A stretch of DNA of 64,000 nt from contig CM102289.1 in NCBI GenBank assembly GCA_046563655.1, positions 3,410,001 to 3,474,000 of the forward strand, written 5' to 3'. The notes under the pieces are model-generated. The model ran no database searches. It saw only the letters and a program-made list of their open reading frames with translations, and had not been told where the DNA came from. How positions within the stretch are numbered: position 1 is the stretch's first letter; each line of letters starts with the position of its first letter. The translations under genes were made by a program, and so were the position numbers. This document shows, piece by piece, positions 1,375-52,700 of the stretch. Origin of the DNA: Yuukianura sp. NJ FZ-2021. Taxonomy: Eukaryota.

Positions 1375-1419
1375 GATGAAAAGAACCAAATTCTTATAAC
1401 CAATACGTGGCTAACTTTG
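1375..1419 (+). CDS. nAChRalpha7: alpha7 alternative exon 3a (loop D), [15 protein letters not shown]
   Basis: 45 nt, ttttag|GAT...TTG|gtaagt, phase 0-0; classic nAChR exon 3 motif. Confidence 0.92.
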
Positions 1420-4400
1420 GTAAGTGCAATTTTTGCAAAAAAAAAATTGCTCCGAGTTTAAACGGAGTAAACTGTTAGTCAGATCCAGTAATCTGTGACT
1501 TGCAGATTTAAAATGTCAATGGAGCTAATTGTGTGCTGCTACTTAGTTGTAACTGTGAGCGCAATGTTGTTCTCTCGGCATACGCAATTGCTGCAACCAG
1601 GTCTGGTCTTGCATGTTAACTCGACCACATGTTTAAAAATAGACTGACTTAGGTTAGGTTTACATTAGGTTAGCCTAATCAACATTTTAAATTCGTTGAG
1701 AAAAAGGAAGGACGCGTTTTTTTGTGCCAATTTGTAAAGATCTTTCGATCGTTTTTAGTGTGTTTTTTTTTCAGAAAAGAGGAATCCTGCGATCCGTAAA
1801 TGTGTCTCCGCATGTATCTGCTTTCCCCTGTGCTTTCTCCATGATCATAAAAACTGTATGTGTGTAGCCACTGCCACACCAAAGGTCTCCAGTGGATTCT
1901 AACAAAACCTAACCTAAAGTTCACCTGACTACTACAATTCCTTCAACGACTGTCGATTTCTTTGGGGTTTAAAAGCTGAAAGCTTGGACAGTTAAGGCTT
2001 ATCCCCTTTAAACTTCCCTCTCTTCCTCCGTTTACTCTAGTGTACCACTACCATAAATTTCAATTGAACAAACAAAATGGATACCCTGGGAATTGTCCTT
2101 ACTTCTAAAACCTAAAGCCACCGTTAGGTTAGCCTAGGCTCTCCTTGTTAGGTTGAAAGAAACTTGCACTTTTCTCCTAAATCCCCGAGTTCTATCACCG
2201 CCCATCCCTGAAATTGATTCTTATTGACGTGGGCATTAAGACAGGAAACGACTGTCGTTCAAATGATCTTTGGAGCTTTGAGGGTTATTTCCGGCCGAAA
2301 CGCGCTGTGTTTTCCTCTGACAATTCTTTTTTTGGTCTACCTTTAACAGAGAGTTGTTTGTTTCGATCCCAGAAGTTAACAATAATGCTGACGGTTCATG
2401 ATGTTACAAACGACTCAGCGTATCTAACTGTGGTTCCTTGATGGTGCATTTATATCGATGTTAAGTTGATGAGATAGAACTTAGCAATTGATGTTGAGAT
2501 GAACACTGTTTAGTATACTACTTTACCTGTGTTTTCAATTGCAACTGTGATCTGATTGTTTGTGTCTTTGTCCCTTCTCTTTGTTTGCATGTGCTCACAT
2601 TGTATTTGCGGCAATATTTCTAAATGCAGGACGAGAAGAATCAAATTCTAGTCACTACTCTTTGGTTACGAATGGTGAGTCAATACCTTTCCTTATACGA
2701 CCTACTTTAACACTTCTTTCAAATCAAACCGCATTTTTCAATTTCATTTTCACTCAATCAGCCCTTGAACAACTTTCTTTACTTTTTTTTAAATCACTCT
2801 GCTTTGAAAACACAAAAGTCAATTCAATTTAATTTCAACAATGGAACTGCTGAGAGAAATGACGCAAACCAAGTAAGGTTTGGCAGACTAACGTAACCTA
2901 ACCTAGCAATTCTTTCAATCTCAATCAACGCTAACAAAAAAAATTCTCCAACGAATAGATGTGGTGACAATGGACTTTCTCCAATAACAATTCAAAGAAA
3001 CCGCACAATGTTGGCCCACGAGGCAATTAACTTTCTTAATCAATTTCTTGGCTTCTTCTATTCAATCTCAGCAGTTCCATTCAAAAGTGTCAATTTACGT
3101 TTACGTTTACGCCATACATAACGTTTACCGTGTGAAAATTTAACTTTTTGCATGTAACCTGCCAGCTTACAAAGTCATAAACCAGCCATTTCAATCAATC
3201 CATAAAATTTGCACCTTCAGTTCTTACTAAAAAACCTTGTCAAACTGGTACAGAACTGATGCGTGGTCTCGCCCAGTTTTTGTTCCTTACGCAGGAACTA
3301 CTGCGACGGGTAATTCAAATTGAATTAAAAGGTGTGTTGCGCATGAGTAGGTTGATGGTTCGAAATTTCCTGAAATTTGGTCTTTTGCTCCTTTGCTGTG
3401 TGCATAAATTCCATTTACTCTAACAATTTCACGGTGGATTGAACTGGAGCAGAGTCGAGGCGAGAGGTTTGGTGTGGAACCTGAAGATCCAGAATAGCAT
3501 GACTCCTCCACTTTCTCTTCAAGAAGTGTTGGTGACCAAGGATGAGACACAAAGGAGGGACATTTGACACGTTTTCAACTTCGGCTGTCACAAACCATAA
3601 CTTTCCAAAGGTTAACCTAAAAGCAAGAAAGCAGGGCGAAAGCATTCGTCTGCCGATGAGGGCAAGTTTGCTTAATAAAATGCCTTGGAGGAGCCAGAGA
3701 AACAGAAGAAAGTGGAGAAAGTGATATTCAATTGACTTGGTCTAGTCGTAATCAGTCTCCACTCATGCATGAAGCCATCAAAGGAAGCAACAGAAAACTC
3801 TCCATTGTTCACCACCACTTTTCCTGTATCTTCACTTTCTCAGTAGAAACGTCTAACTTTCTTTTAGAATCAAAAAGATTCAAGAACACTTCTGAAACTG
3901 AAGTTGTGCTACAATTCTGTATTTGGATGTGCATGACAAAGAAGTGCATGATTTGTATAGAAAACAATGGACGGGAAAAGTTCATGTCTCGCGGGAACTT
4001 TTGAATCGTGACGAGAACACGATTAAAATTGAAGTTGCATCTTTGCACGCAATGCATGTTGTTTGTTGTTCCATCGAACAAGAGGAGTGTTGTTGGAAAA
4101 GACGTGCATTTGAAGACTTGTGAATTGCTTTATTAGTTAATCGACTGCAAACTAAACAGTTTGTGGATATACAGAAATTAATGAAGGGAAGACATGCGAG
4201 AAATCTGGTGTAGGGAGGAACCTTTCTTTTTCGTATTATAAACCTCGTCAGGCAAACAAGCGAGGAAGTTGTACTATATTTTACAGTAGAAAAGTGAAAA
4301 GAGGGAACCTTTGTGTATTGTTTGAAAATATTTTGATACCCGAGCGCCACCAGACGAGTGGTTCTAGAGTTAAATGAGGCTTTCCTTCTGCTTCAAGCTT

Positions 4401-7400
4401 CAAGCTTTGTCTACTACTTGTCGCAGTGTTGCTTGTGGTGAAAGTAGACTTTCACTGCAACGCTTTCGTTGTGGCTTACTCAGTCAGGTACTGACTGTAT
4501 ACTAGTTTCTTTTGTGTTTACACTGCGCATGTGCCCTGTGCTACATAAAGTTTGCAGGACTTGCGCCTGCTGTAGCATCAGCTTGCTCTCGATCAGCCTT
4601 TCAGAGGCCCAGACAAAAGCTTCGCTTGACTGTTCTTAGAAATGTGCTTATAAGAAATTCAAACAAAGCCTCAAATGTAGTCGAGACGAGAGCATGCGGT
4701 GCTGGTAGCAGAGCCATCTCTGCCGCTTGAACTGAACCTTGCTACTCTCTTGGCTTGTTCTTCCACAAGGCTCTAGATTTCACCTCCTTGCTTTCACTTT
4801 GGCTTCAGCTTGACTCAATTTTTCATTAGACTCTACACACTCCTATGAATACATTCTTAAATTGTACTTCTATTCTAATGTGACAGGAGTGGAATGATTA
4901 TAATCTCCAATGGAAGCCAGAGGAGTATGGCAACATTTCCGACCTTCGCATTCCTCCACATCGAATATGGAAACCTGATGTTTTAATGTACAACAGGTAC
5001 AGAAACAAATATTAGTCCTTTTAGTTACATTTTTAGCCGAATTTTACACAATTGACTAAACTTGTAACTTTAAAATACTTGAACTTGTTAGTGCCGATGA
5101 ACAATTTGATGGTACGTATCAGACGAATGTCGTGGTGCGTAGCAACGGGAGCCTCACTTATATCCCTCCAGGAATATTTAAGAGTACGTGTAAAATCGAC
5201 ATCACTTGGTTCCCCTTCGACGAGCAAAAGTAAAATTTTCTCATTTCTCAATTTTTTAAATTCTACATTGTTAATTGTAAAGTCACGGTCGAGAGAAAGT
5301 TATTACAAGTGAAGCATGTACGGAGACTTTCGTTTTGAAAGTTTCAATTTACATTAAAAAACTGGAGTACATCCGAAAAATGAAAACTAAATTCAATTTA
5401 CATATTGCGTAATTCAAAATTGAGAGTAGTAACTTACTCTCGGCTTACACAAAAGTAAGCATATTAAATTTTAACCAAAAACCAAATTTCGTTTGTCTCT
5501 AAGATGCGAAATGAAGTTTGGCAGCTGGACATATGATGGTGGCCAGGTAAATCAATTAAATACTAAAAGTTTCAATACAGTAACTTATATACATTTTTTG
5601 GTTTCTTAAATTAATCATAATTTCGAAATTCTGGACGTGTTTTTCTAAAAAAAATTACATTGGATTACTAACTCATTTGTTTTAAATAAGCCCAATGTTA
5701 CTAAGATTTTAACCAAATTTAAATTTTTCAGCTGGACCTTCAGCTGCATTCCCAAGACGAATCAGGAGACATTAGCAGTTTTATACCAAACGGTGAATGG
5801 TCTCTCAAGGGTAAGGAAAATGACTTTCCTTTGTACTATTTACATCAAATATTTGACTTGGCATTATTATAACATTCAATAGAATTTCTAGGAATCGCTG
5901 CAATTGAGACTTTGAGTTAGAAAACTTAGGTCCACTATTTGACCTTGTGTTGACTCAAAAATTTATGATTCTTTTAAAAAAAGTCTTTGAAACCGTACTC
6001 CACTTCGGTGGGATTTGGACACTGGCGGGTAATTGGAAATCAGAGAAAATGAAGTTTATGTGTTACAAAGGGTTGTGTGGCCTTTGATGCCTTTTCTTTC
6101 CAATTTACGTCCCAAACCCTACTTTCTTCTTGTTTATATTTCTACTGTCTCCCAAACCCAGCTCTCCCGTTCCACTTGGATTATATTTCAGAGGAGGATC
6201 AAGGCGTAGGAAGAAACGGTTTGAAACATTGCGGATTTCCAGGAAAGCGTACGATGGGCCACGAATGCGGTCGACTCTTCTTTGGCACAATTTGGAGAAA
6301 CCTCCGGCACGTGTATGCGTGTATGCCAGTCTCTACTACTCTAGTAGTTATATGCCGCCACCCACGTTCCTTTCCCCGGTTAGGTTAGTTTAACCTTTCT
6401 CCCTGCTTTCTCTTTGCAGAGATCCCTCTAGACGCCCAGAGCACATGAATTTCATTTTGAGGACTTACATTATTTAGAAAGGAGTGTTGTTGCGTGTACA
6501 AAGTTTAGCCTTTTCAATTTGTTACCGCTGGACTCGTTTCCCTCGGAGTGGGTATTATGAGATGAACGAAGAAACTGCTTCCAGCTAACTGCCAACTGAC
6601 AAATCAACTTCAACTTTTCTTCTTAAGCTGCTTCCGACAACTTTCAACCTTGTATAGAATAGGAAACTGTTTTATAACAGGCACAGGAAGGCAGAAATGA
6701 GATTTTGTTTGCAGAAACCATTTCCGTTTGATCCTCAAAATTTGTTTTGGGGGGAAATTTTAGTTTCCTTTTTAATTTTGGTTGACATTGATTCCAGGTT
6801 TTACTTTTTTGTAGTATGGAATTTCTCGAAGAGGCTTTTAAAAGTGTGTAAAGGGCAGATAAAAGGTTAGATGGCGCTGCAATGCCAAAATGTAGAACTA
6901 GAAATACGAAGTGAAAGTACGCAGACTGCAGCGTTTCAGCTACAGAAACCTTAGGAAAGTGAGTCAGACTTTGTAAAATCGATATTTGTACTTGGACGTG
7001 AACCAGTTCATTGTACTCGGTCAACAGAAAGGCTTTCCCAACGTGAGTTTTTGGACCATTTCAAAAACAATACCTTCAACATAGGGTGAATAGCAATCAG
7101 AAATGTATATTTTTAGGCCACTCCTTCATTTCAGAATTCTCCAAAAACTTTTACTTTAATCTTCAACTACAATATCAAAGATTTATCTGATGTCCTTACA
7201 ATAGTTTTGAGCCGTGAAGAACGTGAGAGTAATCATTTCCTGTTATATGTTTAACTAAATAAGTTTCATTTTTTTTTGTCCTAACCTGTGTTGATGTTTG
7301 TTCTTTTATCCTAAACACACTTTGACTTTCGAATCATCTTTTAAATGTCATTTTGAAGAACAAGTTAAGTAGATGCTGAGTTTGACATGATCAAAACCAG

Positions 7401-10400
7401 CAGCACTTTCCCTAAATATGATCCGATCGAACAGCACTTTTCACTTTCTACTTTGACGACGCTTTTACTAAAACATTTTTTGAGTCCACCACCAGTTCAA
7501 CTCGAGTTTTTTGAATGACGTTTTGGCCTTTAAGTGGCAAAAGAAAAGGCTCTTAACATTTTCTCAGCCCACTCTGGATCAATGTTTTGAGTGGTTTTGA
7601 GCAGAAAAAGAGTTCCAAGGATTTATTGAATGTTATAAAAAAAAAAGACTGAAACGTGTTTTTGAGAAACTTTTTTTTATGATGGTGGCAACTAATAATT
7701 GAATTTTTGGATTTGTTTTTTGGTTCTTGTATTTTTGTAGGCGTGCCGGGGAAGAGAAACGCCGTGTTTTATGCTGTAAGCCCTTTTATTCCTTCGTAAC
7801 TTCAAAGTTTCCTTTTTCAATTTTTGAAAAAACCCGTGAGACTGATTGACACTTCTTTTTTGATTTTTGATGGTTTGTGATGCAGTGTTGTCCGGATCCA
7901 TACGTCGATATAACATTTGTGATTCACATACAAAGGCGAACGTTATATTATTTCTTCAATTTAATCGTTCCATGCGTCTTAATTGCCTCAATGGCCGTGC
8001 TTGGGTTTACACTGCCGCCAGATTCAGGAGAAAAATTATCTTTAGGTAACCATAACACTAACAAAACCAAACTTTTTTGACTCCATTTTGATTTTGACCA
8101 TTTTAGTTTTGACCCCCCAATTGACCTCTCCTTAATCCTCCAACCTGGCGGGGCTAACTCAGCGCGGAGTGCATGAACAAATTTGTGTGAAAGATTTTTT
8201 TTAAGAAAGCAGGAGACATTTTGAACATGGTTAAATTAAAATTTTGAAAACTTTTGGAAATTGTGTACTTCGGGAAACGGACGACAAAACTTTTAGAAAA
8301 AGTTGGGATTTAATCTACTTTTGTTAAAAAAATGCTCTGTTACACATTTACAGCTCACTGCATTTTGTGCATCTAGGTGTGAAGGGCGTGCGCAACGTCA
8401 AATATTACTCGTGTTGCCCAGAACCGTACGTGGATGCCATTTTTACGGTTCACGTTCAGCGCCGAACTCTATTCTATTTGGTCAATTTGATTGTCCCTGG
8501 AATCATGGTCTCCTCAATGACTCTCCTTGGATTTACCCTCCCGCATGAATGTGGAGAGAAGCTAACACTAGGTATAGGCGCCTAAAGTAACTAACTTTTG
8601 AGACAGGTTGAAATATCTAGGTCAAACTTAATAGTTTTAAACACTATGTGTCAGGTCTCAATTCAGACTTTTCAAAAAAGTTTCAAATTTAAAACAGTTT
8701 TGAAAAGTGTTTACGAGATTAACTCTCCAACATTGCTTCCACTCAAAACACCCAAAAAAGGAAAGTCCAAATTCAATTTCAGCTCTTGCTCACTCCATTA
8801 TGGCCACTTTTCTGCCTTCTTGAATTTCAGCCCACTGACAGGGCGCAGAGCGTTATTGAATCTTTTTTTTTCATGCCTCTGCATACTGTACAGTTTGTAG
8901 TGTGCTGCTCCAGTATTACGAAAACTCCCGCCCAAAGGAACTGGACCAGTTTTTAACCGAACCACGTAATCCGCCTCCCAGCATCTTTCACTATATGCAC
9001 CACTACTCTATACAAACAGCCAAACTGTTCCATGACTTTCATGAACGGCACGTTTCGGACAGAATCGTCATTAACGATACTTTCTAGACAGAATTCTCAT
9101 GGAGGTTCGTTATAAACGCTAAAGCACAACAAGGGAAGTACTTTATAAACAAAATCAAGATCTATCTTTGTGCACAAAATCCAAGGTTCCTATACCAACT
9201 AAATAGTTTTCCTTTAATAGGTTTGGCAATAAGTCCTGTTTACAAAAAATCTCGCCCCGAACCATTTTTTTTTGTCAAATCCATTTGTTTACATATAAAT
9301 TATTGCCATAGGAAGGCACAGTGAAGCAAGTTTTGCTAATTTTTTAACAAAATTTAAAAAGTTATAGTTATTGCGTAACCTGTTAAAGAAGAAACTATTT
9401 TCTTGTTTACCAACCTTGGACGGAATCTAATTCAGGAATTTTGCAAATCTCCCAAATAGAAGAGTTTTGTACTTCTTAGACCGCCGGACATCCGTCCATT
9501 GAGTCCATAACTTAATAGCTAGTTCTTAAGTGACCGTCCATGAGTGTCCGGCTTCCTTCCTAACTTATCCTCCGAGTTCAGAGGACTGAAGAACGGATCG
9601 ATTCCATTTACTTTCCCCACTTTCCCGTCTTCCGACTTACAGTGAAGGCCCGAGCACTATGGGAAAAGTGGCCGAACACGTTTCTTTGCATTTTCCTTCA
9701 CGAGAGAACGCTTTTCCACTTCAAGCGGAATCAGGCCCATTACACAGTGGCCCACGGCTTCAAAACTCCTCGAATCAACGGTCAACACGTAAAGGAGCAG
9801 GGTATAATATGTTACAATGCTCAATGTTAGGCTAATTGCATTTGTCACTTTTACTTAATTATAAGAAACAAACAATTATGGTTGTGAATGATAAGAGGAC
9901 AAAACGAAGGTTGCAAGGAGCAGTGAAAATTCAAAAAAATTCCAAAAACCTAAGTTTTGCCAATCATCAAATTTGAATTCACCTAACCTTTGAATTTCGA
10001 AAGAACAAAATACGTCTTCATTCTAGTTTTCTGAGTTCCTAGTTGCGGTGACAGTGTTTTTTTTTGGATGCGATGTTTGTATGTGGAGCGAAAGCACTTG
10101 TCCTTGGGCACTTAAAACATACTCATAATTTAGCAGGGTGGCTCGCTTGGAGAGACAATAGAGAAAGTGTTGATTTCTCTAAGTGCCCACCGACAGTATA
10201 ACCTAACCTTTAGGCCAGGTTTTCAACCTAATCTACAGCATTTCTACCATGTAACTGGTGGTATTGATCCTTAAGGTGCGACTTTGGTATGATCAGCTCC
10301 ATTCCTTTTCCTGTTCCTTCTGTTTTCTGTTTTGGTTGAATTCCCTCCGGGCCTAAAGCCCATTTTCTAATTTGCAGAGTGTGAACCATGTTGTTTACTA

Positions 10401-13400
10401 AAGTGGAACTTAATTTACTCCCATGTAGGTGTGACAATATTACTTAGTTTAACAGTGTTCTTAAACATGGTCGCGGAAACAATGCCAGCAACCTCAGACG
10501 CAGTGCCTTTACTAGGTAACAACACCATTCTCACACCTTCAGCCAGTTCGTTTTGTGTCCGGTGCCTTTGGATCTGTGATGTTTTACTTCATTTTAGTTC
10601 AGAAAGCTATATGGACCATTTTGTTTTTTCTTCTTTTTGCCTTAACAAATTATTTTCAAACGGAAAAAAATATTTTGAAAAACCTAATTTTAAAATGTTT
10701 TTTCTCCACAAACAAATAAGGCAAAGAGTTATGTGTAATGATGACTGTTTATTTTAGACTCAAAATCCTTTTTAGCGACACACGCTTAATCTGGTGTTGG
10801 ACGGTGACAAATTTATGAACACTTTTCGATTTTGAAATTTCATTTTTTCCTTACTTCTGTCTCTTCTCTCTCATATTTGAACTTTCTCTTGTCTTGTTTT
10901 TACTTATTCACTTCACGCTGAGAACTCCAAACTTTTTTTTAGAGTTCAGAAGCCGTATAGTTTTTTTCTTCTTTTGTAATGCACATTTTAGTCTAAATTT
11001 TTAACCGTCTTTTTGAGAGCCCACTTGACTTTCTCTTTCACTTTTTTTCTGTGTCGCTCTTCTGAAGTCTTTTCTCCACTTCACAGTTTATATCTCATTT
11101 CACATGAGTGATTTTTGAATGAAGACTTTGTGCGTCGACTGAAGCCAATTGAACATCCAAGGGCTCCTAACGTAGCCTTTGAATAAGGCTCAAGGACCCC
11201 GGGAAATAATTTAATCAAATTAAAGGCATTAGAGTGAAGCTAATCACAATTCAGCAGGTTCTCTATGCTTCCCTTCTTTCACTTTGTTCCCATTCATACA
11301 ATGTTGAGTACTAGAGCAACTCATGAGTCATTATTTGCCAAAAATTTGGAAAAAGCCGTATGAATTACCAAACAAAACTATGTATATAGCTAGTTTTAGT
11401 TCAATCTTGTGCTAAGTTTACATGTAACCTCGATGTTGACCGTTGACATTCCGCAGGAGACGCTTTTATCTCGCAAGCACACTTCAAGAAACTGAAAATA
11501 CTGAATTGAGATCTTCTCTGTCAGTTTGCAATCTGCCAAGGGAGAGGCAGAAGTCCATGCGGAATTTATTTGGCAAATCCTTCTGGAAAACAGAGTCTTA
11601 GCTTGTGTAATTCCTAATATTCTATTATTTTATATGCCAAAGTTTTCTTTCTCAATTTCCATTGCCAAAGTCGTGCCAAAAGAGATTCCAGGAGGAAAGA
11701 CTTTTGGCAATATCCCTCCTCCCCCTCTAACCCAGATCAAATATTGAGAAAATAAATTTTCATTTGAAAGGAATGGTATTCCTTTTTGCTCATAAATCTT
11801 GATCTCCCTGAAATGGAACAGAAGAAAAAGACACTTTTCCATCAGAATGAATATACACTGCAGGAGAAAGTTACCTTAAAAAAAGTTAAATCTTAAAAAA
11901 ATGTTCTAAAAAAACTTCCGAACTTGTCACCTTGGCAGACTGTGAACTCGACTTTTGAGAATTAGAATAAGTTATTTAAAATTTTTAAATTTCGATGTTA
12001 AATATTTCACTTTCACCGTAAACGGAACTCTTAAGTTTCATCCTGTACTTTTATCGTACACAATTTTATATTGTATATTGTAAATTAGGTGTGACAATAT
12101 TGCTGTCATTGACGGTATTCCATAACCTCGTGGCAGAAACGCTTCCTCAAGTCTCGGATGCTTTACCAGTTCTAGGTATAATTATTTACGTTGCACAAAA
12201 GTTATTAACAGTCAATTCAACACGCTCCCCACCCTGGCTTACCTCAACTCTTGTTCTAACAAGTTATAGCAGTCTCACCTATAAACTTTTACCCCCCACC
12301 CTAATTTTCACCCTAAGTCATTTTTTGGTATTTTACTGTAGACTTTCTTCAACCTTCACTATCAACTCACACTATCGCCTCTTTTGAAACTGATACGGTT
12401 TTTTCCAAAGACGATTTTTGGCAAATAATTTTGGTACCACTGTAACCCGCCGTAGGGCTCTGTGTAGTCCGCAACTGTAAGCAAACTTTACCAAACTGCT
12501 GCCTTCCTTTGGACATTTGGCAATATCAATTGCAAATTTGAATTCCAAATTTTGTGCAAAAAATTCCCAGTACAACTATTTGTACACCATCACTTTTGTA
12601 CTTTATCTACTGGGAGACACAGTTTTGAAGAGTAGAAGCGATTTGCAAGTCTCTAGAAAGCAATCAATCTACTCGACTCCATTTGGAGTACTGTAATAAA
12701 GTGTCTCATGTGAAATGGGATCGACATCTCAGCACAACTCACAAATTCCATTTACTTTCTTCTTTTTTCACTCACTTTTTTCATGATTCATAATTTTGAA
12801 ACCAAAGAGAAAGTTTTCAAATTTGTCATTTGTTGTGCATCCAGTGTCGTTGCATTTTTTGGCAGCATGTTTTTGTACACACAGTTTTTATACACAAATG
12901 TTGAACACTATTTGCTTTCACTTGCCAGGAAGAAGCAACTCAAATGCACCCTGGTTGTTTGTTTTTGACTGCCGAAGTGTAATGTTAAATTTAGTTTGCT
13001 CTGTACACCAAGCTTTGAATCTTATACGAAAGCCTGTTTTTGGCAATTTGTTTTGTTTTGTACCAGAGCATTTGATTCGAAAACGATTGGAGATCTGATT
13101 TGTAGTTCCGTTGACTAATGAAATTTGTTGCATCTTCCTCTGTTCAATTCTAGGTACATACTTCAATTGTATCATGTTCATGGTAGCCTCTTCAGTGGTC
13201 TCAACGATTTTAATCTTGAATTATCATCATCGGAACGCTGACACGCATGAGATGTCTCAATGGGTAAGCATCAAGGACTTTCTCCGCTTTTACTTCCCGC
13301 CCAAAAAATTTTCTCGACGTAATCCACAATGCGCGTTTAGAACTTGTATCCGAAGGCTTAACGTCGCATTTGTTCGCTTTGCCTAAATTGCTAAAGCCTC

Positions 13401-15675
13401 CATCATCATATTCTTGTCAAAGTTTAATGATTGACCACATTCTTAAAGCTTCCCGCCAAACAGTCATCTGCAATCAAGGTTCCTTGACAACGAAAAGTTA
13501 ATTTTCTTTAACAGGTTGGGGACTACCGCGTTTGTTGAAAAAAAAAATTAGTACAAATTTTGTACCAATCCAAAAAATTGGTACCAGTTCGTATGCAAAA
13601 TTTGAAAAAAAATTAACTTGTACCACAACTACGAGCCCCGAAATGAAAAGATACTTTTTTTTTTGCAAATCAAAAAAACACGAGGTATTACGCAACCTGT
13701 TAAAGAAAACCAAAATCAGCAAATCTTATCGGTAGGCGTTACTTTGTTCATGGGCTACTTGAGAAAACGAGGAAGTCATGCGCAGCATCACCCTTCGTTT
13801 AGCAAAAACCGAAACGCTATGCGCATCGTCGGGCAGTTGCTAATTGCTTTTAACGAACTGGAGTGGTAACAAAGACCACCAAATTATTGTACACTTTGCC
13901 AATCGCCATTAACGAACCATGATTTTAATGTTGAACTAAAGTAGTTTGCTCTCTTTTCTCTACTTTCCCCGCCCACAATATTTATTATTTTGGAATTTGT
14001 TGTTCCCGCCTAACCACAAGCGGGTTCTGTACAAGAGAGTTCTAAGGCGGGAGAGTAATGGAGGGAGACAGGCACTCTGCGGCTTCCCTTTCATTTCTTC
14101 CTAGAAGACAAAGTTTTTGGGTTGGTCTAATGGGATTTCCCTTTGTCTGTGTTCTCTCTCCATCCTTTAGGTAAGAATCGTATTTCTGCAATGGATGCCG
14201 TGGCTTCTTCGGATGAGTCGTCCGGGTGATAAAATTACGTTAAAGGCAATGGCTGCCACTGCCAAGATGAGAGATCAGATCCGAGAGCTCGAAATGAAAG
14301 AGAGATCTTCCAAAAGTCTGCTAGCCAACGTCCTTGGTAAGGTCAAAGGTCAATCTTTACTCTCTCCATCTACTCTAAACAATCTGAAATAGCTAAATAT
14401 CCTGCCCCTTGGCACACCAAACCCACCACTGACAGTTTCATATCTACAAATTTATGAATTTACGAAGCGGACAGGGCGATGTTTGGGACTCATAAATAAA
14501 TTGGGAACACATAAGGATTGAGTGGTCCAGAAAACCAGATATGGCTTTTTATTCAACCAATCGATTCACTAATACCCGCAAGTTCCTAATTTCAAAGTTA
14601 TGTTATTTTTGCAAATGCTTTTTTTTTAAATATATTTTATTTCACGGCTGCGACAGGCAACTACACATTTGTTTTTCATACATATTATACATATATGTAT
14701 ATTGTCTCAAGTCTTTTTTCGAAAGCGAAGTTTTCAATAAACTTAAAATAAGCTTTCTGAAAGCTTGTTTTGTTCCAAAAATGTTTACCTAGTATAAATC
14801 TAAGTCACGTTACTTTTGATTTAAAGCATTTCTCAGTGTTCGAGCTGCGATCACTTATAAAAAGATGAAACCAAAATGACAAGTTTAGCATCATAATAGA
14901 TCAATGTTGTATAAATTTCAGTGTTGAGAGTTTTTTTTTTCATTTGACTGAAAAGAAAAATCGAAAAAAAGTTGAAATTAACTGAAAATTTTATCTATCC
15001 TTGTTTCATTTTACTGGAACAAATTGAAAGAAAGTAGAAAGTAAAAGAAATTGAAATATTTCGTTGAAAAATTTCAGCGTATCAGTAAAATAAGTTAAAG
15101 ATGCTGAAAAGATTTATTTGACGTTACATGTATTTTTCATTTTCTTGGCATTGTTTTCATTTTTCACTGAAAAGTGAAATATTTCAAATCTAACGCTGTG
15201 ACAGATTCCCACATACGAAAAGAAAGTTTACTACACTGACATGAACTTTTCTTTTTTTTTTGTACTTCAGATATGGACGACGACTTTCGACCAGCGACAC
15301 TTCGATCCTCAGCTCTTCATTCTACTCCGGGATGGCGGATCGGTGGCTCACATGAAGACCCGATCGCCTCCACCGTGAGCCACCATCCGTGTCTCGGGGC
15401 CCACCGGGAACTGTCCCTCATCCTCAAGGAAATTCGCCTCATCACGGACAAGATCCGGAAGGACGACGAAGCAGCAGAGATCACGAGTGAATGGAAGTTT
15501 GCAGCCATGGTCGTGGACCGTCTCTGTCTCATCATCTTCACGCTCTTCACCATCATCGCCACGGTTGCCGTTCTCGCTAGTGCACCTCAGGCACGTCTCT
15601 CCACTTTGCCCCACTTCCTCCTTGAAAAGTTGTATCTGACTTTTTGTTTCTTTCCTCTAGGTATTTGTCCCTTGA
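1375..15675 (+). CDS. nAChRalpha7: nAChR alpha subunit, alpha7 type (5'-partial; exons 1-2 lie upstream of the window)
   Basis: Phase-consistent exons: [1375-1419 or 2630-2674], 4887-4996, 5092-5229, 5504-5546, 5732-5810, [7741-7775+7886-8045 or 8377-8571], [10429-10515 or 12089-12175], 13154-13263, 14171-14336, 15271-15590, 15661-15675. Encodes WKPDVLMYN (loop A), Cys-loop [21 protein letters not shown] (loop B), YxCC loop C, GEK+M2, [24 protein letters not shown] (alpha5/alpha7 type rather than alpha6 type) and M4 [16 protein letters not shown]. Confidence 0.93.
2350..2460 (+). pseudogene. possible decayed duplicate of alpha7 exon 2
   Basis: After ttaacag reads (E)SCLFRSQKL...[20 protein letters not shown] then ttaagt. 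Resembles alpha7-family exon 2 (PVANDS..LTV...QIIDV|gt) but has a stop, is shortened and has a dead donor. Confidence 0.35.
2630..2674 (+). CDS. nAChRalpha7: alpha7 alternative exon 3b (loop D), [15 protein letters not shown]
   Basis: 45 nt, tgcag|GAC...ATG|gtgagt, same length and phase as 3a. Confidence 0.9.
5288..5444. repeat. short degenerate inverted-repeat element in an alpha7 intron
   Basis: gtcgagagaaagttatt (5288-5304) versus agtaacttactctcggc (5428-5444), 14/17 complementary. Confidence 0.4.
7741..8045 (+). CDS. nAChRalpha7: alpha7 alternative exon 7a (loop C + M1), split into 35-nt and 160-nt exons
   Basis: 7741-7775 [12 protein letters not shown], intron gtaagc...tgcag 7776-7885, 7886-8045 [11 protein letters not shown]...[12 protein letters not shown]; total 195 nt. 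Confidence 0.9.
8377..8571 (+). CDS. nAChRalpha7: alpha7 alternative exon 7b (loop C + M1), uninterrupted
   Basis: 195 nt, atctag|GT...CTAG|gtatag, phase 1-1, open: [66 protein letters not shown]. Confidence 0.88.
9182..9418. mobile_element. MITE, same family
   Basis: Both ends closely match the 51949 copy; TSD degenerate. Confidence 0.8.
9643..9801 (+). pseudogene. possible degenerate third copy of exon 7
   Basis: Pyrimidine tract + ttacag, 159 nt, phase 1-1, open frame VKAR...[11 protein letters not shown]...[16 protein letters not shown]|gtataa echoing exon 7b motifs VK, IF.H.RTLF, GF..P...G; lacks CC and a hydrophobic M1. Confidence 0.3.
10429..10515 (+). CDS. nAChRalpha7: alpha7 alternative exon 8a (M2), [30 protein letters not shown]
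   Basis: 87 nt, tgtag|GT...CTAG|gtaaca, phase 1-1. Confidence 0.92.
12089..12175 (+). CDS. nAChRalpha7: alpha7 alternative exon 8b (M2), [30 protein letters not shown]
   Basis: 87 nt, attag|GT...CTAG|gtataa, same length and phase as 8a. Confidence 0.9.
13475..13728. mobile_element. MITE, related subfamily
   Basis: caaggttccttgacaacgaaaag...; internal ttggtaccagttcgtatg shared with the 49393 and 54301 copies. Confidence 0.75.
15591..15660 (+). other. GC-AG intron before the terminal 4-codon exon of alpha7
   Basis: CAG|gcacgt donor, ctgac branch-like site, pyrimidine tract, ctctag acceptor. Splicing gives SAPQVFVP*, matching the short alpha7-family C-terminus. Confidence 0.75.
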
Positions 15676-43700: not shown

Positions 43701-46700
43701 AAGTTAGATTGTATCTATGTAAACCTTACCAAACCTCGGTAGAGCCTAACTTGTGACAACTGAATACCGTATGTTCGGCTGCCAACTTTAAAAACTTTTT
43801 TTCCCTCCTTTCCCTCCCACCCCCAATTCCGAGATTTGCCAAGCGGCAGCTACGCTCCGCAAGACTACTGGCACTTTTCGAGCTCTGTCGCCAAATTCGA
43901 CTTTTCTAACCTAACCTAAAGTAAATTCACTTCACACCAATGTAATAATTAACCCAACATAATTAATTAACGTTTAAATTAACCTAACCTAGTTAATTAG
44001 CGTAATACCCTATCCTAAAATAAATTTAATTCTAAATTATTATGAATTGACCTAAAATTAGAACAAACTAACCTTTTTTGAACTAGTTTTGAACTTTTTT
44101 CAAAATTTTGAACTTTTCCCAAAATTTTGAACTTTTTTCAAAATTTTGAACTTTTCCCAAAATTTTGAACTTTTTTCAAAATTTTGAACTTTTCCCAAAA
44201 TTTTGAACTTTTTTCAAAATTTTGAACTTTTTTCAAAATTTTGAACTTTTCCCAAAATTTTGAACTTTTTCGGTTTTAAACTTTTTTTTTTCAAAATTTT
44301 GAAAAAAGTTCAAAATTTTGGGAAAAGTTCAAAATTTTGGGAAAAGTTCAAAATTTTGAAAAAAGTTCAAAATTTTGGGAAAAGTTCAAAATTTTGAAAA
44401 AAGTTCAAAACTAGTTCAAAAAAGGTTAGTTTGTTCTAATTTTAGGTCAATTCATAATAATTTAGAATTAAATTTATTTTAGGATAGGGTATTACGCTAA
44501 TTAACTAGGTTAGGTTAATTTAAACGTTAATTAATTATGTTGGGTTAATTATTACATTGGTGTGAAGTGAATTTACTTTAGGTTATTTGAGAAAAGTCGA
44601 ATTTGGCGACAGAGCTCGAAAAGTGCCAGTAGTCTTGCGGAGCGTAGCTGCCGCTTGGCAAATCTCGGAATTGGGGGTGGGAGGGGAAGGAGGGAAAAAA
44701 AGTTTTTAAAGTTGGCAGCCGAACATACGGTAGCAGGGAATGTCATTGAAGTGAGTTTCAGTATTGATAAACTCCTTCAAGATCCCGCCTGTTCCACGTT
44801 GAGTGAAAGTCATTTGAAGGAATGATTTATGAAGTTCAGCTTGCCTCGTGGAGAAATCAGTGAAAGTGATGGAGTCCTTTGGCCCAATTTCCAAAAAGTT
44901 TTATGCAGGTCCATGCTCATGCTCTGTATTTTGTGTCTCTCCTTTGAATTCCAGGTCGCTGTTCTGAGGATGAGGAGAAACTAGTTCGTGATCTATTTCG
45001 TGGTTACAATAAATTGATACGACCCGTTCAGAACATGACGGAGAAAGTCCATGTCAAGTTTGGACTCGCCTTTGTACAGCTCATCAACGTGGTAAGGCCT
45101 TGCGTGCTGGAATTTTTAATTTGGAAACTTATTTGGTGTAATTGGTTCCGTGTCAGTCCGCATCTTCACAGTCGTTTAACAAAACACGCACCCTATAAAC
45201 CACACAAAACAATTAAACTTAAATTAACCCACGATTAAATAAACAATTAAACCAAATTTCAAAGGGTTTTGCTTTGTACTTTGTTTAACTCCTCCAATTT
45301 TCTAGATGAGAAAATTCTCCTGCAGTTTTACTCACTCGCATACTTGAATTTCGTGAAACAGCGAGCAATATTTGCAGTAAAAAATGTAATTACCTAAAAT
45401 TTTTTTTTAAATTTTCGTGTAATAATTTTTCAAAATGCATTGTACTTCTGACCCAACACAGGATTTCGTAGAATATCACCAAAAAAATGAAAAAGCGTTA
45501 AAAAAAATCCCGCCAGCAAGATATGTGACAAAATTTCAAACTTTCCAATAAAACATTAATATCGAAAACCTTTTGGCGTAGAGCGGGACGTGGTTTGTGA
45601 TGATGAGAACTTCAACGGTGCAGGGTTAGCTCATGATGTTGTGGTACGAGAACGAATTCTTTTGAAATTCCCGTATTCCCCAACATCCTTTGCAAAGAAT
45701 AGATCCGAATGAAAGTCATTTATTTCTATTTTTGGACAAACATATACTAAGCTCCGGTCCAAAATCGAATTTCACCACAAAAGAGTGCCCCAAAGTCCAA
45801 AGTCGATGTGGTTTCTGCAAAGTTTTGTAAACTTTCGGAACTTGATGAACTTTCGAAATCCATAGTATTGAATGTATCGCTCAATTGAGTCAAATTAGAA
45901 TTAAAAAAATAACTTATTTACTTGAAAAATTAATAAAACTAGGCAACAGTCCATTAACTCTTTTAAAATAATATTTCTGTTTCCCAAATATTTTGGACAA
46001 TAAATTAATATAAATTGGTTCACATTTTGATAAATTTTTTAGAAAAAAAAAGAGTTCATTCGCAAGCCAATTGCTGTGTTTGTTCATTTCAGAATGAGAA
46101 GAATCAAATTATGAAGTCCAATGTTTGGCTCCGTTTGGTAAGTTTCTTTTGTTCAACGTTTAGCTTTGAATCCAAAAACTACCTTAAGGTAGTTGTATCT
46201 CCGTCTGTCGTAACTCTGTCACTCAGTCCGTCACTGTGGTTAGTTACCATAAACCTGTCAACTGTGAAGTACGCAACGACTTAGCCGGATTTTCCCGCTT
46301 TCCTAAATTTCCCGCACAGTCTAGAAAGCATGACTTCTACGACGCTCTGTCTCATAAAGTAATTTCAACTTGACTATAAATTAGAACCGGGAGTCTTGAG
46401 GCGATTAGGTGAACTCCTCTGTGACCTTCCATCTTGGCACCAATGTTATGCTAGGTATAATGCTAGGACGAAGGGCGTTGGAGTGGGTCTAAGTAGCTAC
46501 ATCAGTGTCTTCCATGACTGACACTTCCGTCACCCGTACTGCCATTCGAACCGACTGTTTTCGTGCTGGCATGAGACACCTTCAGATCAGACACCAACTT
46601 TTGTCCAATTTGTATCACGTCAAGCGAAAAGCGGGAACTGTGTCCACTCCGGAACTGACACGAGAGGCAGGAAAAGACATCGTTCCAGTTCAAAATGGAC

Positions 46701-49700
46701 GGAACCGGGACAAATCTGAGAGAGAAAGTCAAAGGCTCGTGTCAAAAAAATTATAGATACAGAAAAGCAATATGAAACTTCAGCGTTTTTCCGCTTCCAT
46801 CACAACTGCGTTGAACTGAAAACAAAAATGGACGACTCTCCTGATTCCTCACGATTCAGCAGCAGTAGATGCTGCTGGATTCTGAGCAACTACCATCATC
46901 TTCCTTGCTAGAGCTCTAGACTCCATTTCTGACACTTTTAGCACCCCCACCGAACCATTGGAGAAATATTCGGGGAATCGTAACTCAGGATTTGCTCATA
47001 CTATAGCCTTCATCTTTAGTCTTCCTTATATCCATCTATGCAATCAGATAAAAAAATGGGAAGTGGAAGAGTAGTACTTTAACAATAGTTTAGCAACATT
47101 CCTTTTTCATCACACGGAATGTTCTCACATTTTTCATAAGACCTACAATAAAAGAAGGAGCACACAAAACGAAATACTCGACTTTGTCATCCCTTCCCAT
47201 TGCAAACAGGGAAAAATTGGGAAACTTTTCTCCAGAGTGAAAGTAAAAAGTGAAAAAGAATTTTGGAAAAAAGAAAAGATGTATTACGCTGTGAATATTT
47301 TACAAATCACTCTGCCTCGATTTTTTACAACTATGAAAAATGACCAGCTCTGAGACCGCAATCCGTAGTGTCCACAGTGTACAATTATTAAAATTTTAGT
47401 AAATACATAGGAAAGCTAAGTCCTTGAAAAATGAATAGAAACAACACAATTGTCAGAATTCTCTTGTCCTATAATTTGTCTTTCAAAATTTTGTTATTGA
47501 TTCCCTAAATTTCTGATTTCAAAAATTTAGTAAAACTCACGCCATTGTTTATTACTCTACTCTGACAGTTTTAAAATTGTGGAAGTACATGGTCGTATCT
47601 CTAATGATTTTGAAAGTTTTGTGAGCGAGTAACCACAAAACTGCGGTAAAGCACGAAACTTTTTAAAGTTGTAGTAGTAAAACAGTGTAATTTTCATTTG
47701 AATTTAAAAGTGTTAAATTTAAACCACTTTCTGCGTGCTGTCCAATAATATGCTTAATTTAAACTTGTTTTACTGTTCCTTTGCCTAACTTCTATTTGAA
47801 AAATAGTGAAGGTGGGAAAGGCCTAGACACAGTTCTAAGCTCTCGCCTTTGTTAAGCGGGCAAGTCTAAACTCGTTTTGAATTTTGAACTGTTCCAACTT
47901 TGCCCATTTCCTAAAAAGTACGGGAGGGAAGACTGAAACGGAAAATGGCGGGAAACGCTGTAGAGTCTTTCCATGAGGCTCCTCATTTTCTATTCCATTT
48001 TCTTAACTTAAAACGAATTAGAGAGTCGCATCGCTTCTATGCAAAATGAAGCGAAAAAAAGAGCTCGGTGCTCCTGCCTCGCACTTTGGCCTCGCTCCTT
48101 TTTTCCTTTTACCTAATAATTGTTTCCACTCAAAGGAACGTAATTTAAACTGAAAAATTGAATTCCGTTTTTTCTGAGTCCCGTTCATTCCAAACGGCAC
48201 TTTGTTTTAAAACAATCTTCTGCCTCATCAAACCAAAGGACTTCAGACTCATTTCATTAATTTTTTTTATAGAATGTGAACGCGTACAACCTGAACAGAT
48301 TTTTTTACGGCCTCAATGCATTGCAATTCATAGCGAAAAAAAATTTTAGTTTTGTTTCAAAGTTAACAAAAAAGGGAACAAGGAATTGACTAAGGATTTG
48401 GTTTTAGACAAAACTAGTTTAAAAACTGTGGCTTCGAATTATTTCAAAGGTGCAACTTTTCACAAAGGAAAAAGTTATTCAATAATTTCGAACTTTATAA
48501 CAGTTCTACTGAAACTTTTTGTAAAATGATTAGTATTTCGGTGAAACTTTTTGAAACAAAGTGTTGGTTTCAAACTACTATGAACTGAGATAGCTGTAGG
48601 ACGTCACGGAAGTGGCGTACACTTTTGAGTACTAAAAAATGTATTTCCTTTGACTTGTTTTTGTTTTTGCTCCTGAAACATTTATGATTTTTAGTCTAAC
48701 GTCTCTCCATTTTCTCTTTGAGCAAAGGACATGAAGTATGGAAGTCATTTTGGAACTGTGTGTTATACGAAATAGCGTAAAAATAAATTGTTTCGTGAAG
48801 TTTATTTGTTAAGGGAGAGCAGAAGTAGAAGGAGTAAGTAAGAGCAGAGGAGAAAGAGTCAATAAGGAAGGAGTGAAAGAACCCGTAAAAGGGAACGGAC
48901 TTTCTTTTTTAGGTTTCTCAGGGAAAGTCATGACGCTAGCAGAGTGTAGTGCCGTAGTGGTGCCAAGTCCTGAGCCATTTCCTTCTACTTCGGTCGTAAG
49001 TGACCTCTGGAGCTCCTTCCTTTTCCCATTCTCTTATTTCGTGTAACAACCATTAAGGGCTTCAATGACCTCTTCGTTCCAATATCCGACATTCGACGTA
49101 CTGTCTCACACGCAAACTTTTCTCTTGTAAACTTACCTAACATAATCTACCTGTCCACCTTAACCTAAACCCATTTGAAAGAAATTAGTCGAAGGAGGAC
49201 GCTAATTTAAGGATATGTTCATGTCTTGTTCAATTCCATTACTTCCTAATTGAGTTCATCTCCCTACGGTTACACCTTAACAATAATGTTAACCTAACGT
49301 AAACTACTGATCAATTCTTGTTAGCTGGACTAAAACACAATTGTCTAACCAAGTCATTGGCGTTCTGTTCAAATGTGTTCCACTCCTAGACCCAAGCTTC
49401 CTTGACAACGAAAAGTTGATCTTCTTTAACAGGTTGAGTACTACTTCGCTGGTTGACAAAAAACGAGAAATCACAAAAAGTTAGTACCAATCCGAAAAAC
49501 TGGTACCAGTTCGTATGCAAAACTTAAAAGATTCGGCTGTATTGTTATGACTACAATGCTCCAACATGGAAATACTTTTAAAATCGGAAAAACATGTAGT
49601 ATTACCCAACCTTTTAAACAAAATCAAATTTAAAAAACCTTGGATAGACCTACCCCATTCGCTTTTAGAGCACTCAGCAGTAGTCCAACGGTGTAATGTG

Positions 49701-52700
49701 TAATGGACCATACGTTTTCATATTTGGGTTTGTCCAGGATGTTAGCAATTGCGGTAAAATGTTTGTATGTTGTAGGTCTGGAATGACTACCAGTTGAAAT
49801 GGGATGAGGCAGACTACGGTGGGATCGCTGTTCTACGTCTTCCGCCAGACAAAGTCTGGAAACCTGACATAGTTCTGTTCAATAATGCTGATGGGAACTA
49901 CGAAGTCCGCTACAAGTCCAACGTCCTGATATATCCCAACGGTGAGGTTCTCTGGGTTCCGCCTGCGATATATCAGGTACTACTCCCGCTACTTGAGTAC
50001 TTTCTGTTTTGCACAATGAGAGCGACAGCGGGTTGGAAAATGGCGGGAAAGGAGTCGTGTTTTTGAATTTTGTTTTTCTGTGTGCCATTGTCCCGCGTTT
50101 TCCATTTTCCATGTGAACTTCATTAGATTTTATTCTAAAGAGTTTTGGTTTATTATGAAAATTCCCCAGAGCTCATGTACCATAGATGTCACTTACTTTC
50201 CCTTTGATCAACAAACCTGCATAATGAAATTCGGTTCCTGGACATTCAACGGCGACCAAGTTTCACTCTCACTGTACAATGATAAGAATTTCGTTGACTT
50301 GTCCGACTACTGGAAATCAGGTAAGACTTGACATTTTATGTTCATTTTAGTAAATTACGTTTTGTTAGAGTTAGTTCCTTCTCTACCTTGCCAGATTAAA
50401 AGGCTTTCTCTTTTTCCCATTTGGGACCACATGCTACCTTATGCCATTGAATTAGTCATTTTTCAAGCTTCCCCTTTGCAATCACTGTCACAACTCCACT
50501 TTCTTTTGTTTAGTAAATGAAAATCTCTGACTCATTTGTCTTTGGCACAAAACAAAAGTAGTCTCTAAAAGCCCAACGACGTTTTTCCAACATTATAGTT
50601 TTACTTAACAATTGAGGCAACCCTGCAGGTAAACAATTCCCTTTCCTAACCTTACACGAAAGCCTAGCCTATAGAAAACCACTACAAACTGAATATTTTA
50701 ACAAACGAAAAAGAAAGTGAAAACAAGTTTTCACTTTCCGCTAAAAACTGAAAATTTAGCAATCTATTTTTGTCCAACCAAGGCGGCGGAACGAGAGTGC
50801 GTCACCCGCTGCATCTGGCACAAAGATTAACTGCTACAAAAGTATACAGAGCAAAAGGTTTCCAAACGTCACTTTCACCTTCCTAGGACTTTCTCCCTTA
50901 GGAATCCAAAGTTAGGTTTACGTTAGGCTAAGGTTAGGTTAGGTATTGACAGTAGGAAATTTAAAGCTACTCGTGTGCTCGCATGAGCATGTTAACTTAC
51001 AATGTCCTCAGAGAGTTTCTTGTTTCCTTTGGTTTAACCTGGGCGATGTTAGGTTAACTATGTTCAGGCTTAGATGTAAAAAGAGCGTACAGAGTTCAAT
51101 GCCTTCTTTAAATATGAAATCCCCGCCAAAGAAATCCTACTAATCCAAACTACTTAAGGAGAAACTCGAGTTGTTTTAGAAGAAAGCGGAATGACGCCGC
51201 CTGAGACTCATTAAAAGTTAAAGTCCTCAAGGAAATTGAGTCAAGTTGAGCAGAAAAGGCCTTTAGAAATCCCTTAGCCCAGTTCTAACTTTAGCCGCAC
51301 CAAAGTTTTCTCTCAACTGAACCCGCCTGCTTTCAACTATTGTTACACTTGGTATATCACAATACTTTCACTCGTTAGTAGTAGAATAAGTCCATTTTGT
51401 CAATTTTGGCTCAGTTTTTAAAACTTTTGTTTTGGTTTTTCTAGGGACTTGGGACATCATCGAAGTGCCAGCTTATCTGAACGTAATAGCCGGAAATCAC
51501 ACCGAGACGGATATTACATTTTACATCACAATTCGGCGGAAAACGCTCTTTTACACTGTCAACTTAATTCTTCCCACGGTTTTGATCTCCTTCCTCTGCG
51601 TCCTTGTGTTCTACCTTCCGGCAGAGGCGGGTGAAAAAGTGACTCTGGGAATCTCAATTCTCCTGTCGTTGGTCGTCTTTTTGCTCCTCGTTTCAAAAAT
51701 TTTGCCGCCAACGTCCCTCGTCCTCCCACTCATTGCCAAGTACCTCCTCTTCACATTCATCATGAACACTTTCTCCATCTTGGTCACCGTCATCATCATC
51801 AACTGGAACTTCAGGGGCCCTAGGACTCATCGCATGCCGCACTGGATACGTGTCGTCTTTCTCAAGTACTTGCCGGTAAGTGTCCGTCCATTCCAAAGTG
51901 GACAGTTCCAGGCAACCTATAACCTTTCAAAAGTTCGACAGATCACACCAAGGTTCCTATAGCAACGAAGTAGTTTTTCTTTAACAGGTTAGGCAATAAG
52001 TCCCTTTCCTAAAAATGTCGCTGCAAATATTTTCCCCCTTATTTTCCCTTGAAATTGTTTACCGCTCTTTTTGTGTAAAATTCAAAAGTTTGCTCCAAAC
52101 TGGACGTTCAAAATAACGAGAAAAAATTTTGGAGCAAGAATTCATGAAACGAGAGCTGCCGTTATGCCCTTTAATTTTTGAAATTTCGAAGAGTAAGACA
52201 TACAACAACGACTTATTGCTTAACCTGTTAAAGAAAAAACTATTTTCTTGTTTACAAACCTTGGATCACACGTTCGCATTGGCTTTTCTACATTTGACGT
52301 TCAAGAGCCATTGAACAACGTCCACGCGTCCTAACTTTTCCTAAGCTGAACCTGACATTTCTGCCTTTGGTATCTATGGGTTTTGTGTTTCAAAGGAATT
52401 TTTAATCCAGCTCTTTTTTTCATTTCAGATTTACCTTTGCATGCGGAGGCCAAGGAAAACGAGGCTGCGGTGGATGATGGAGATGCCTGGAACGGAAGTT
52501 CCTGGATTCGGGAGTGCGGAGCGGGCACCGCCTCCGAATTCGGGCTTCCACATGCCCGAACTGCCACCGAAACACTCACTGGAAGCTCTGGAACTGGCGG
52601 ATCTCCACCATCCTAATTGTAAAATTAATCGAAAGGTACTTGACTCGGACTTAGTTCCTACAGGAATCACACGAACATGTTCGTCTTACAAATTCTAACC

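Follow-up and report, generated by a model that had tools for sequence, protein, structure and literature searches.

A short intron divides one of two tandem exon 7 units in a springtail-like alpha7-type nicotinic receptor gene

RESULTS AND DISCUSSION

An alpha7-type receptor gene with two versions of exon 7

We analyzed a 64-kb stretch of contig CM102289.1 (assembly GCA_046563655.1), called the window below, which carries a gene for a nicotinic acetylcholine receptor (nAChR) subunit with two versions of exon 7, one in two pieces (7a, consisting of 7a1 and 7a2) and one continuous (7b). Coordinates are positions in the window, plus strand (Table 1), and the 72 comparison loci (L001 and so on) are metagenome contigs. 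The gene was traced from 4887 to ~15590 on the plus strand by tblastn with insect and springtail proteins, and both exon 7 and exon 8 are present twice. By sequence comparison it is an alpha7-type nAChR subunit gene (insect D-alpha5/6/7 group) of a springtail-like hexapod. Its top matches were all "alpha-7" or "alpha-7-like" models, the cloned cockroach alpha7 among them, and the locust "alpha6" is a separate paralogue. We use the label springtail-like because the nearest named relative, Folsomia candida "alpha-7 isoform X1," matches the last exon at 91% identity (the runner-up reaches 66%), and because the 90% cluster around this F. candida protein consists of springtail proteins only (Folsomia, Orchesella, and Allacma) plus one further fragment. 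Of the Pfam domains typical of neurotransmitter-gated channels, the ligand-binding one (PF02931) was found on exon 5 (E value of 3e-13), and the transmembrane one (PF02932) was found on 7a2 (28.6 bits; cutoff, 28.1) and on exon 11 (43.6 bits); 7b by itself reached 20.2 bits for PF02932, under the cutoff for so short a piece. The vicinal cysteines of loop C, which mark an alpha-type subunit, are encoded by both 7a2 and 7b.

Units 7a (35 plus 160 nucleotides [nt]) and 7b each total 195 nt, both run from phase 1 to phase 1 at their outer boundaries, and AG/GT is present at every end. The two units are identical at 125 of 195 nt and 38 of 64 residues. A 110-nt phase-0 intron separates the pieces of 7a immediately before the cysteines; its position, the coordinates of both units, and their equal totals had been proposed in an original prediction made from the letters of the DNA and proved exact when the sequence was reread. 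The donor of the intron reads GTAAG, the acceptor reads CAG, and CTGAT/TTGAC motifs resembling a branch point lie 36 to 40 nt from the 3′ end. Since the frame of 7a2 (open reading frame 7871-8080) contains a stop codon 15 nt upstream of 7886, 7a2 cannot be extended upstream as a continuous exon. Nor is the 35-nt piece a chance match, judging from its alignment to the uninterrupted exon of L001 (82% nucleotide identity) and from the conserved residues that it encodes ahead of the vicinal cysteines.

The original prediction also held that 7b changes conserved residues. All of the exchanges it listed are present, namely, VPC to VPG in transmembrane segment M1, PPDSGEK to PHECGEK in the M1-M2 linker, and S to T at position 2′ of M2, but the description needs qualifying. 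The PHECGEK linker and T at 2′ form a conserved 7b signature in hexapods. The VPG motif is special to the springtail-like group, all 6 of whose 7b copies have it; insect 7b copies in the tree described below retain VPC, apart from one aphid copy on a long branch that has neither VPC nor VPG.

Reading frames and the two pieces of 7a

Frame statements were tested with a script that joins exon sequences. When 7a1 was spliced to 7b, 8a, or 8b, a TGA appeared at the second codon past the joint, because 7b (starting at 8377), 8a (10429), and 8b (12089) all open with GTGTGA. The expected frameshift of a lone 35-nt piece joined to 7b or exon 8 thus took the form of an early stop in each case. Splicing of exon 6 to 7a2 shifted the frame, retention of the 110-nt intron led to a stop, and each partial join tested ended in a premature stop. 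These frames support the proposal, already made in the original prediction, that the composite 7a cassette has to be taken as a block. Such behavior would need no new control, because a half-used 7a cannot yield protein.

The intron in 7a as a recent gain

Of 86 homologous exon copies in the comparison loci, 85 run through the intron site without a break, including the 7a copies of L001, L003, and L004. The sole exception is 7a of L002, where an intron of 113 nt lies at the same site; it begins with GTAAG, as does that of the window, and the two agree over 17 nt close to the 3′ end. The coding length of 195 nt is unchanged relative to the uninterrupted 7a units of L001, L003, and L004. Twelve collinear blocks, intronic ones included, align between the window and L002, and the four-point sums of exon differences were 122 for the pairing of window with L002 and L001 with L003, versus 143 and 153 for the other pairings. 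By these comparisons L002 is the closest relative of the window, and the two are sisters. Because the intron is confined to the window and L002 and 85 of 86 copies are continuous, gain is much more parsimonious than loss, which supports a young intron. The original prediction had placed a change of intron content after exon duplication and had named intron presence in other alpha7 genes as the check; the ancient 7a clade described below and the restricted distribution of the intron bear out that order and point to gain.

In the 64-kb window and the 72 loci, the intron had no second copy of the kind that would mark it as an introner; flanking repeats and repeated elements were likewise not seen at the intron in the available DNA.

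Further new introns were present in related loci. In L002 (329-719), 7a contains a second one, giving pieces of 35, 135, and 25 nt separated by introns of 113 and 83 nt. In L042 (2215-2519), a 110-nt intron placed one codon past the loop C cysteine motif splits 7b into 53 and 142 nt. In L004, 8a (3618-3798) is split into 74 and 13 nt by a 94-nt intron, and 8b (5612-5853) is split into 63 and 24 nt by a 155-nt intron. Unit length (195 or 87 nt) is preserved in every split unit of L002, L042, and L004. The six new introns showed no similarity in sequence, except between the orthologous introns of the window and L002, and no further copy of any of them was found in the window or the 72 loci. The split 7a of the window is thus one of several such cases in this group.

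Age of the duplication and selection on both copies

A search with 7b returned a 7a-type unit followed by a 7b-type unit in protein models of termite, locust, stick insect, katydid, planthopper, kissing bug, louse, and Daphnia. Both units are present in tandem, 7a first, in 14 of the 72 metagenome loci (L001 to L004, eight termite-like loci, the Daphnia-like L023, and the thrips-like L034). A tree of 36 exon units placed all 18 units of the 7a type in one clade (support of 98/94), with every 7b unit outside it; these 18 come from springtail-like loci, insects, Daphnia, Artemia, a copepod, and decapods. The springtail-like 7b units grouped together (95/77), as did insect 7b units (80/70), and 7b of Daphnia and of an aphid lay on long branches. 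Because the 7a units form a supported clade that excludes 7b, the duplication is, by this tree, ancient and older than at least the springtail-insect split.

Several of the 14 tandem protein models of at least 300 amino acids (aa) (among P0005 to P0019, from insects) have two to four M2 exons in a row. For that reason, tandem 7a-7b models are artefacts of in-frame prediction that hide alternative exons in public annotation; the genomes do carry both copies. A model with 7b by itself was found for Thrips palmi.

Among 25 decapod isoform models, 19 contain only the first exon 7, 4 contain only the second, 7b-like exon 7, and 2 contain both. The decapod second exon 7 did not group with hexapod 7b in the tree, and we do not claim orthology between them. 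All four models with only the second exon 7 (among P0117 to P0151) carry an exon 8 version resembling 8b of the window. As predictions, these models may hint at coordinated choice of M1 and M2 exons.

In comparisons of 7b among the window, L001 to L004, and L042, 30 to 48 of ~46 synonymous sites differ, against 6 to 21 of ~145 nonsynonymous sites. All six springtail-like 7b copies keep the frame, the 195-nt length, the acceptor AG, and the donor GT. By this measure purifying selection on 7b is strong, a pattern typical of coding exons in use. We infer that 7b is used in the window species, the evidence for its expression being this selection, and that it is mutually exclusive with 7a there; isoform models from other taxa that have a single copy lend indirect support to exclusivity. 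For 7a, the window and L002 differ by 11 synonymous changes and 1 nonsynonymous change (ratio of nonsynonymous to synonymous divergence, dN/dS, of 0.02), which indicates that the split 7a stayed functional and under selection after the insertion.

Compared across these species pairs, 7b has diverged far more in nucleotide sequence than 7a and 8a have. Synonymous divergence (dS) of 7a is 0.29 to 0.77, and 7a2 is 90 to 93% identical to its counterparts in L001, L003, and L004; 8a is 97% identical to those of L002 and L004. The corresponding values for 7b are 72 to 82%, with synonymous sites saturated. The conservation of 7a and 8a points to a constraint on the RNA itself, e.g., editing, splicing signals, or structure.

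Splice choice

In the window and its relatives, 7a acceptors are U-rich and conserved and 7b acceptors are variable. The default form is probably 7a, given its stronger, U-rich acceptor and its use in nearly every annotated relative. Unit 7b is probably a minor, regulated form that alters the flank of the ligand site, M1, and the cytoplasmic mouth of the pore.

One intronic block past 7b is conserved between the window and L002 (Table 1), and the intron between 7a and 7b (8046-8376) has no block conserved with L002. Pairing of the block at 8792-8838 with an upstream block was considered and rejected as evidence: it comprises 10 bp in L002 but has two mismatches in the window. U12-type splice sites were also considered and set aside, as 7b donors read GTAT or GTAC, 7a donors read GTAA, and a likeness to GTATCC occurs in L002 only.

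A strong pair of inverted segments flanks exon 8b. The duplex between its arms was predicted at -40.1 kcal/mol, compared to a mean of -15.3 kcal/mol (standard deviation, 4.9) in 121 control windows. Arm 1 lies in an otherwise diverged intron; the L002 contig ends before the position of arm 2, so only arm 1 could be compared. We regard this pair as a candidate RNA structure for looping out 8b.

Steric exclusion, the mechanism of alpha-tropomyosin exons 2/3, acts between alternative exons that lie close together. The 7a-7b spacing is ~150 nt in termite-like loci versus 331 nt in the window. In two insect-like contigs (P0002 and P0003), 7b follows 7a after only 7 codons of open read-through. That distance is too short for an intron and would itself forbid joining of 7a to 7b. 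Steric exclusion of the alpha-tropomyosin kind would fit the spacing in P0002 and P0003, but it cannot apply to the 331 nt of the window.

Interpretation and alternatives

We consider it likely that the window gene holds an ancient 7a/7b pair in which both members are kept by selection, that a recent intron splits 7a, and that the two pieces of 7a are used together, with either 7a or 7b chosen. At the level of DNA the finding is real and well supported. We propose that a new phase-0 spliceosomal intron was inserted in 7a just ahead of the cysteine codons in the common ancestor of the window and L002. This 110-nt intron would be removed constitutively, as an ordinary short intron, in every 7a transcript. 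The regulated choice would still be the old one, between the acceptors at 7741 and 8377, with the matching donors at 8045 and 8571. With constitutive removal inside 7a and choice at the outer sites, the 7a pieces would travel together. Transcripts with one 7a piece would be out of frame, stop early, and give no receptor, making the block self-policing.

Several observations weigh against this interpretation. Frame does not impose exclusivity, as it is kept when both units are included and when both are skipped; since co-inclusion is in frame, nonsense-mediated decay cannot prevent it. The spacing of 331 nt is too long for steric exclusion to do so. Inverted-repeat scans of window positions 5811 to 10428 and of L002 positions 1 to 2900 yielded just AT-rich pairs with 71 to 94% complementarity, and the best duplexes in scans of the exon 7 cluster (-31 to -38 kcal/mol) had long bulges and lay at non-homologous places in the window and L002. 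These scans thus detected no conserved complementary elements of the docking-site/selector kind around exon 7 in the two species compared. None of the eight F. candida and Orchesella models that span exon 7 has 7b; all eight take 7a and 8a. Among 133 fetched proteins of at least 300 aa, 107 have 7a only, 14 have both units in tandem, 1 has 7b only, and 11 have neither motif (the last group includes the 4 decapod models with only the 7b-like exon and some models in which exon 7 is skipped), and the protein collections searched held no 7b-containing spliced form from a close relative. The protein tree leaves the order of the window, L001, and L002 open (94/55), and a gain may have been followed by precise loss in L001.

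The scarcity of 7b in springtail models and in the fetched proteins is what would be seen if 7b were an unused relic in springtails, with only the split 7a made and the choice gone. A relic should decay, yet the six springtail-like copies keep frame, length, splice sites, and protein despite saturated synonymous sites. Insects and Daphnia have retained this type of exon, and models with 7b only (thrips) or with only the second, 7b-like exon (decapods) exist, so that we think a relic improbable. We give even less credence to the idea that the 110-nt insertion disabled 7a and left 7b as the sole working exon 7 of the lineage. The exonic context of the new donor is no classic proto-splice site, and a 35-nt exon is short for exon definition, as this idea would have it; however, 7a of the window and 7a of L002, both with the insertion, have since diverged by 11 synonymous changes and only 1 replacement. 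The splice signals of the intron (GTAAG at the donor, CAG at the acceptor, and motifs resembling a branch point) are in place, exact length and frame are kept in both pieces, and L002 has taken up a second intron without loss of frame.

An intron ancestral to the duplicated exon, later lost from 7b and nearly all other 7a lineages, is very unlikely as well. Precise intron loss is a known process, and the open order of the window, L001, and L002 leaves room for it, but many independent precise losses would be needed to leave 85 of 86 springtail-like, insect, crustacean, and other copies without the intron, and the other, non-homologous new introns in related loci point to ongoing gain. We find it hardly credible that transcripts normally include 7a together with 7b, as many database models do. 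Such a transcript is in frame, and 14 fetched models have both units in tandem. The protein, however, would contain loop C and M1 twice, and under the four-helix topology established for Cys-loop receptors, the remainder of the membrane domain would be inverted. Several of these models carry two to four tandem M2 exons, the mark of an artefact, and single-copy isoforms of the same genes exist.

Relation to known systems

Insect nAChR alpha6 has mutually exclusive exons 3a/3b and 8a/8b/8c (Grauso 2002, as cited; PMC1919356; PMC8505678, Table 1). The window gene belongs to the same receptor subgroup, shows the same kind of tandem exon duplication, and also has the exon 3 and exon 8 (M2) clusters; judged by sequence, its alternative exon clusters are three, at exons 3, 7, and 8. 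It differs in that the exon 7 cluster, from loop C to M1, is not among the events for Drosophila D-alpha5, 6, and 7 in Table 1 of PMC8505678, and in that one option is interrupted by an intron. The term "Exon 7" has no occurrence in Jin et al. 2007 (PMC1919356). In the full-text literature searched, whose coverage stops short of subscription journals, there was no alternative exon 7 pair in an nAChR gene and no alternative exon split by a new intron. The main text of PMC9219234, which combines "exon 7a" with nicotinic terms, has no passage on such an exon 7 pair; splicing is not mentioned in the cockroach alpha7 paper, and the available portions of two myosin papers contain no split-exon case.

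A two-exon alternative unit used as a block has a parallel in vertebrate GNAO, where the exon pairs 7.1-8.1 and 7.2-8.2 serve as alternative blocks (PMC5896119). In GNAO, both options are pairs that were copied together, and the exons are terminal; the window unit is internal, and its two pieces stand against one through later intron insertion. Competing RNA pairing between docking sites and a selector is reported to control exon clusters, among them those of human ATE1 (PMC7797038) and of Dscam in insects (Graveley 2005, cited in PMC1919356). A mechanism of this kind could enforce one of two options where inclusion of both stays in frame, and the strong candidate pair around 8b of the window resembles it, but the exon 7 cluster has no strong or conserved pair.

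Significance

The residues swapped between 7a and 7b presumably adjoin the cysteines that bind agonist, fall within M1, and occupy -5′, -4′, and -3′ of the inner pore mouth as well as 2′ of M2. In Cys-loop receptors, such positions set conductance, calcium permeability, and drug or toxin sensitivity. Because the swapped residues are at the ligand site, M1, the pore mouth, and 2′, the 7a and 7b forms should, by analogy, differ in gating, conductance, or ion selectivity. The alpha5-7 group includes the target of spinosyn insecticides. A second version of this segment, conserved in springtails, crustaceans, and hemimetabolous insects, would therefore matter for non-target toxicology if it is expressed.

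Programs that predict clusters of alternative exons seek adjacent exons of equal length and frame. A split option is invisible to them, and such cases are therefore probably undercounted. Close relatives with zero, one, and two new introns in the same exon allow a before-and-after comparison for intron origin, which also bears on whether choice between duplicated exons uses the outer splice sites only.

Recent lineage-specific intron gains have reportedly been observed in Daphnia populations. Like those, the introns described here are short, lie at sites uninterrupted in close relatives, and are unrelated in sequence to one another; they differ in that they lie inside duplicated exons that are used alternatively. 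Tentatively, and with more doubt than confidence, we suggest that at least five independent short introns in the 7a, 7b, 8a, and 8b units of five closely related loci mark a springtail hotspot of ongoing gain, in which choice survives since partial joins eliminate themselves by frame. Under this proposal, single alternative exons would have a general route to multi-exon modules, and exon 7 would be a third, undescribed ancient cluster of the arthropod alpha5-7 group, possibly coordinated with 8b. If the hotspot were real, species that have the intron and species that lack it would form a natural series in which to test how one exon is chosen over the other.

Other features of the window

The exon 3 segment of the window gene is precisely where the F. 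candida isoforms differ. The exons located in the gene, together with the introns and candidate RNA elements discussed above, are listed in Table 1.

Table 1. Positions of exons, introns, and candidate RNA elements of the receptor gene in the window
Feature	Position	Strand	Details
7a1, first piece of unit 7a	7741..7775	+	35 nt; phase 1 to phase 0; acceptor tttttgtag, donor gtaagc
Intron inside 7a	7776..7885	+	110 nt; phase 0; GT..AG
7a2, second piece of 7a (vicinal cysteines, M1, M1-M2 linker, M2 start)	7886..8045	+	160 nt; donor gtaacc
Intron between 7a and 7b	8046..8376	+	331 nt
7b, continuous alternative unit	8377..8571	+	195 nt; acceptor catctag, donor gtatag
Conserved intronic block past 7b	8792..8838	+	88% identity over 49 nt with L002; ~220 nt downstream of 7b; pyrimidine-rich
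Exon 3, copy 1	1375..1419	+	45 nt; AG..GT; weak tblastn match to F. candida isoform X3 (87%, 15 residues)
Exon 3, copy 2	2630..2674	+	45 nt; AG..GT; weak tblastn match to F. candida isoform X1 (67%, 15 residues)
Exon 4, ligand-binding domain	4887..4994 (ends approximate)	+	tblastn
Exon 5, Cys-loop	5087..5233 (ends approximate)	+	tblastn; PF02931
Exon 6	5732..5810	+	phase 1 end, one base carried over; donor gtaagg
Exon 8a, M2	10429..10515	+	87 nt; tblastn, joined-exon script
Candidate inverted pair, arm 1, intron between 8a and 8b	11329..11364	+	31-nt stretch 100% identical in L002
Exon 8b, M2	12089..12175	+	87 nt; tblastn, joined-exon script
Candidate inverted pair, arm 2, downstream of 8b	12390..12430	+	predicted duplex with arm 1
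Exon 9, M3	13154..13266	+	tblastn, joined-exon script
Exon 10, cytoplasmic loop	14171..14335 (ends approximate)	+	tblastn
Exon 11, loop and M4	15270..15590 (ends approximate)	+	tblastn; PF02932

Two more nicotinic-receptor-like genes lie on the plus strand at ~44900-54820 and 58040-58720, with PF02932 matches on their transmembrane exons (E values of 5e-41 and 1e-12, respectively). The window thus contains a cluster of three receptor genes.

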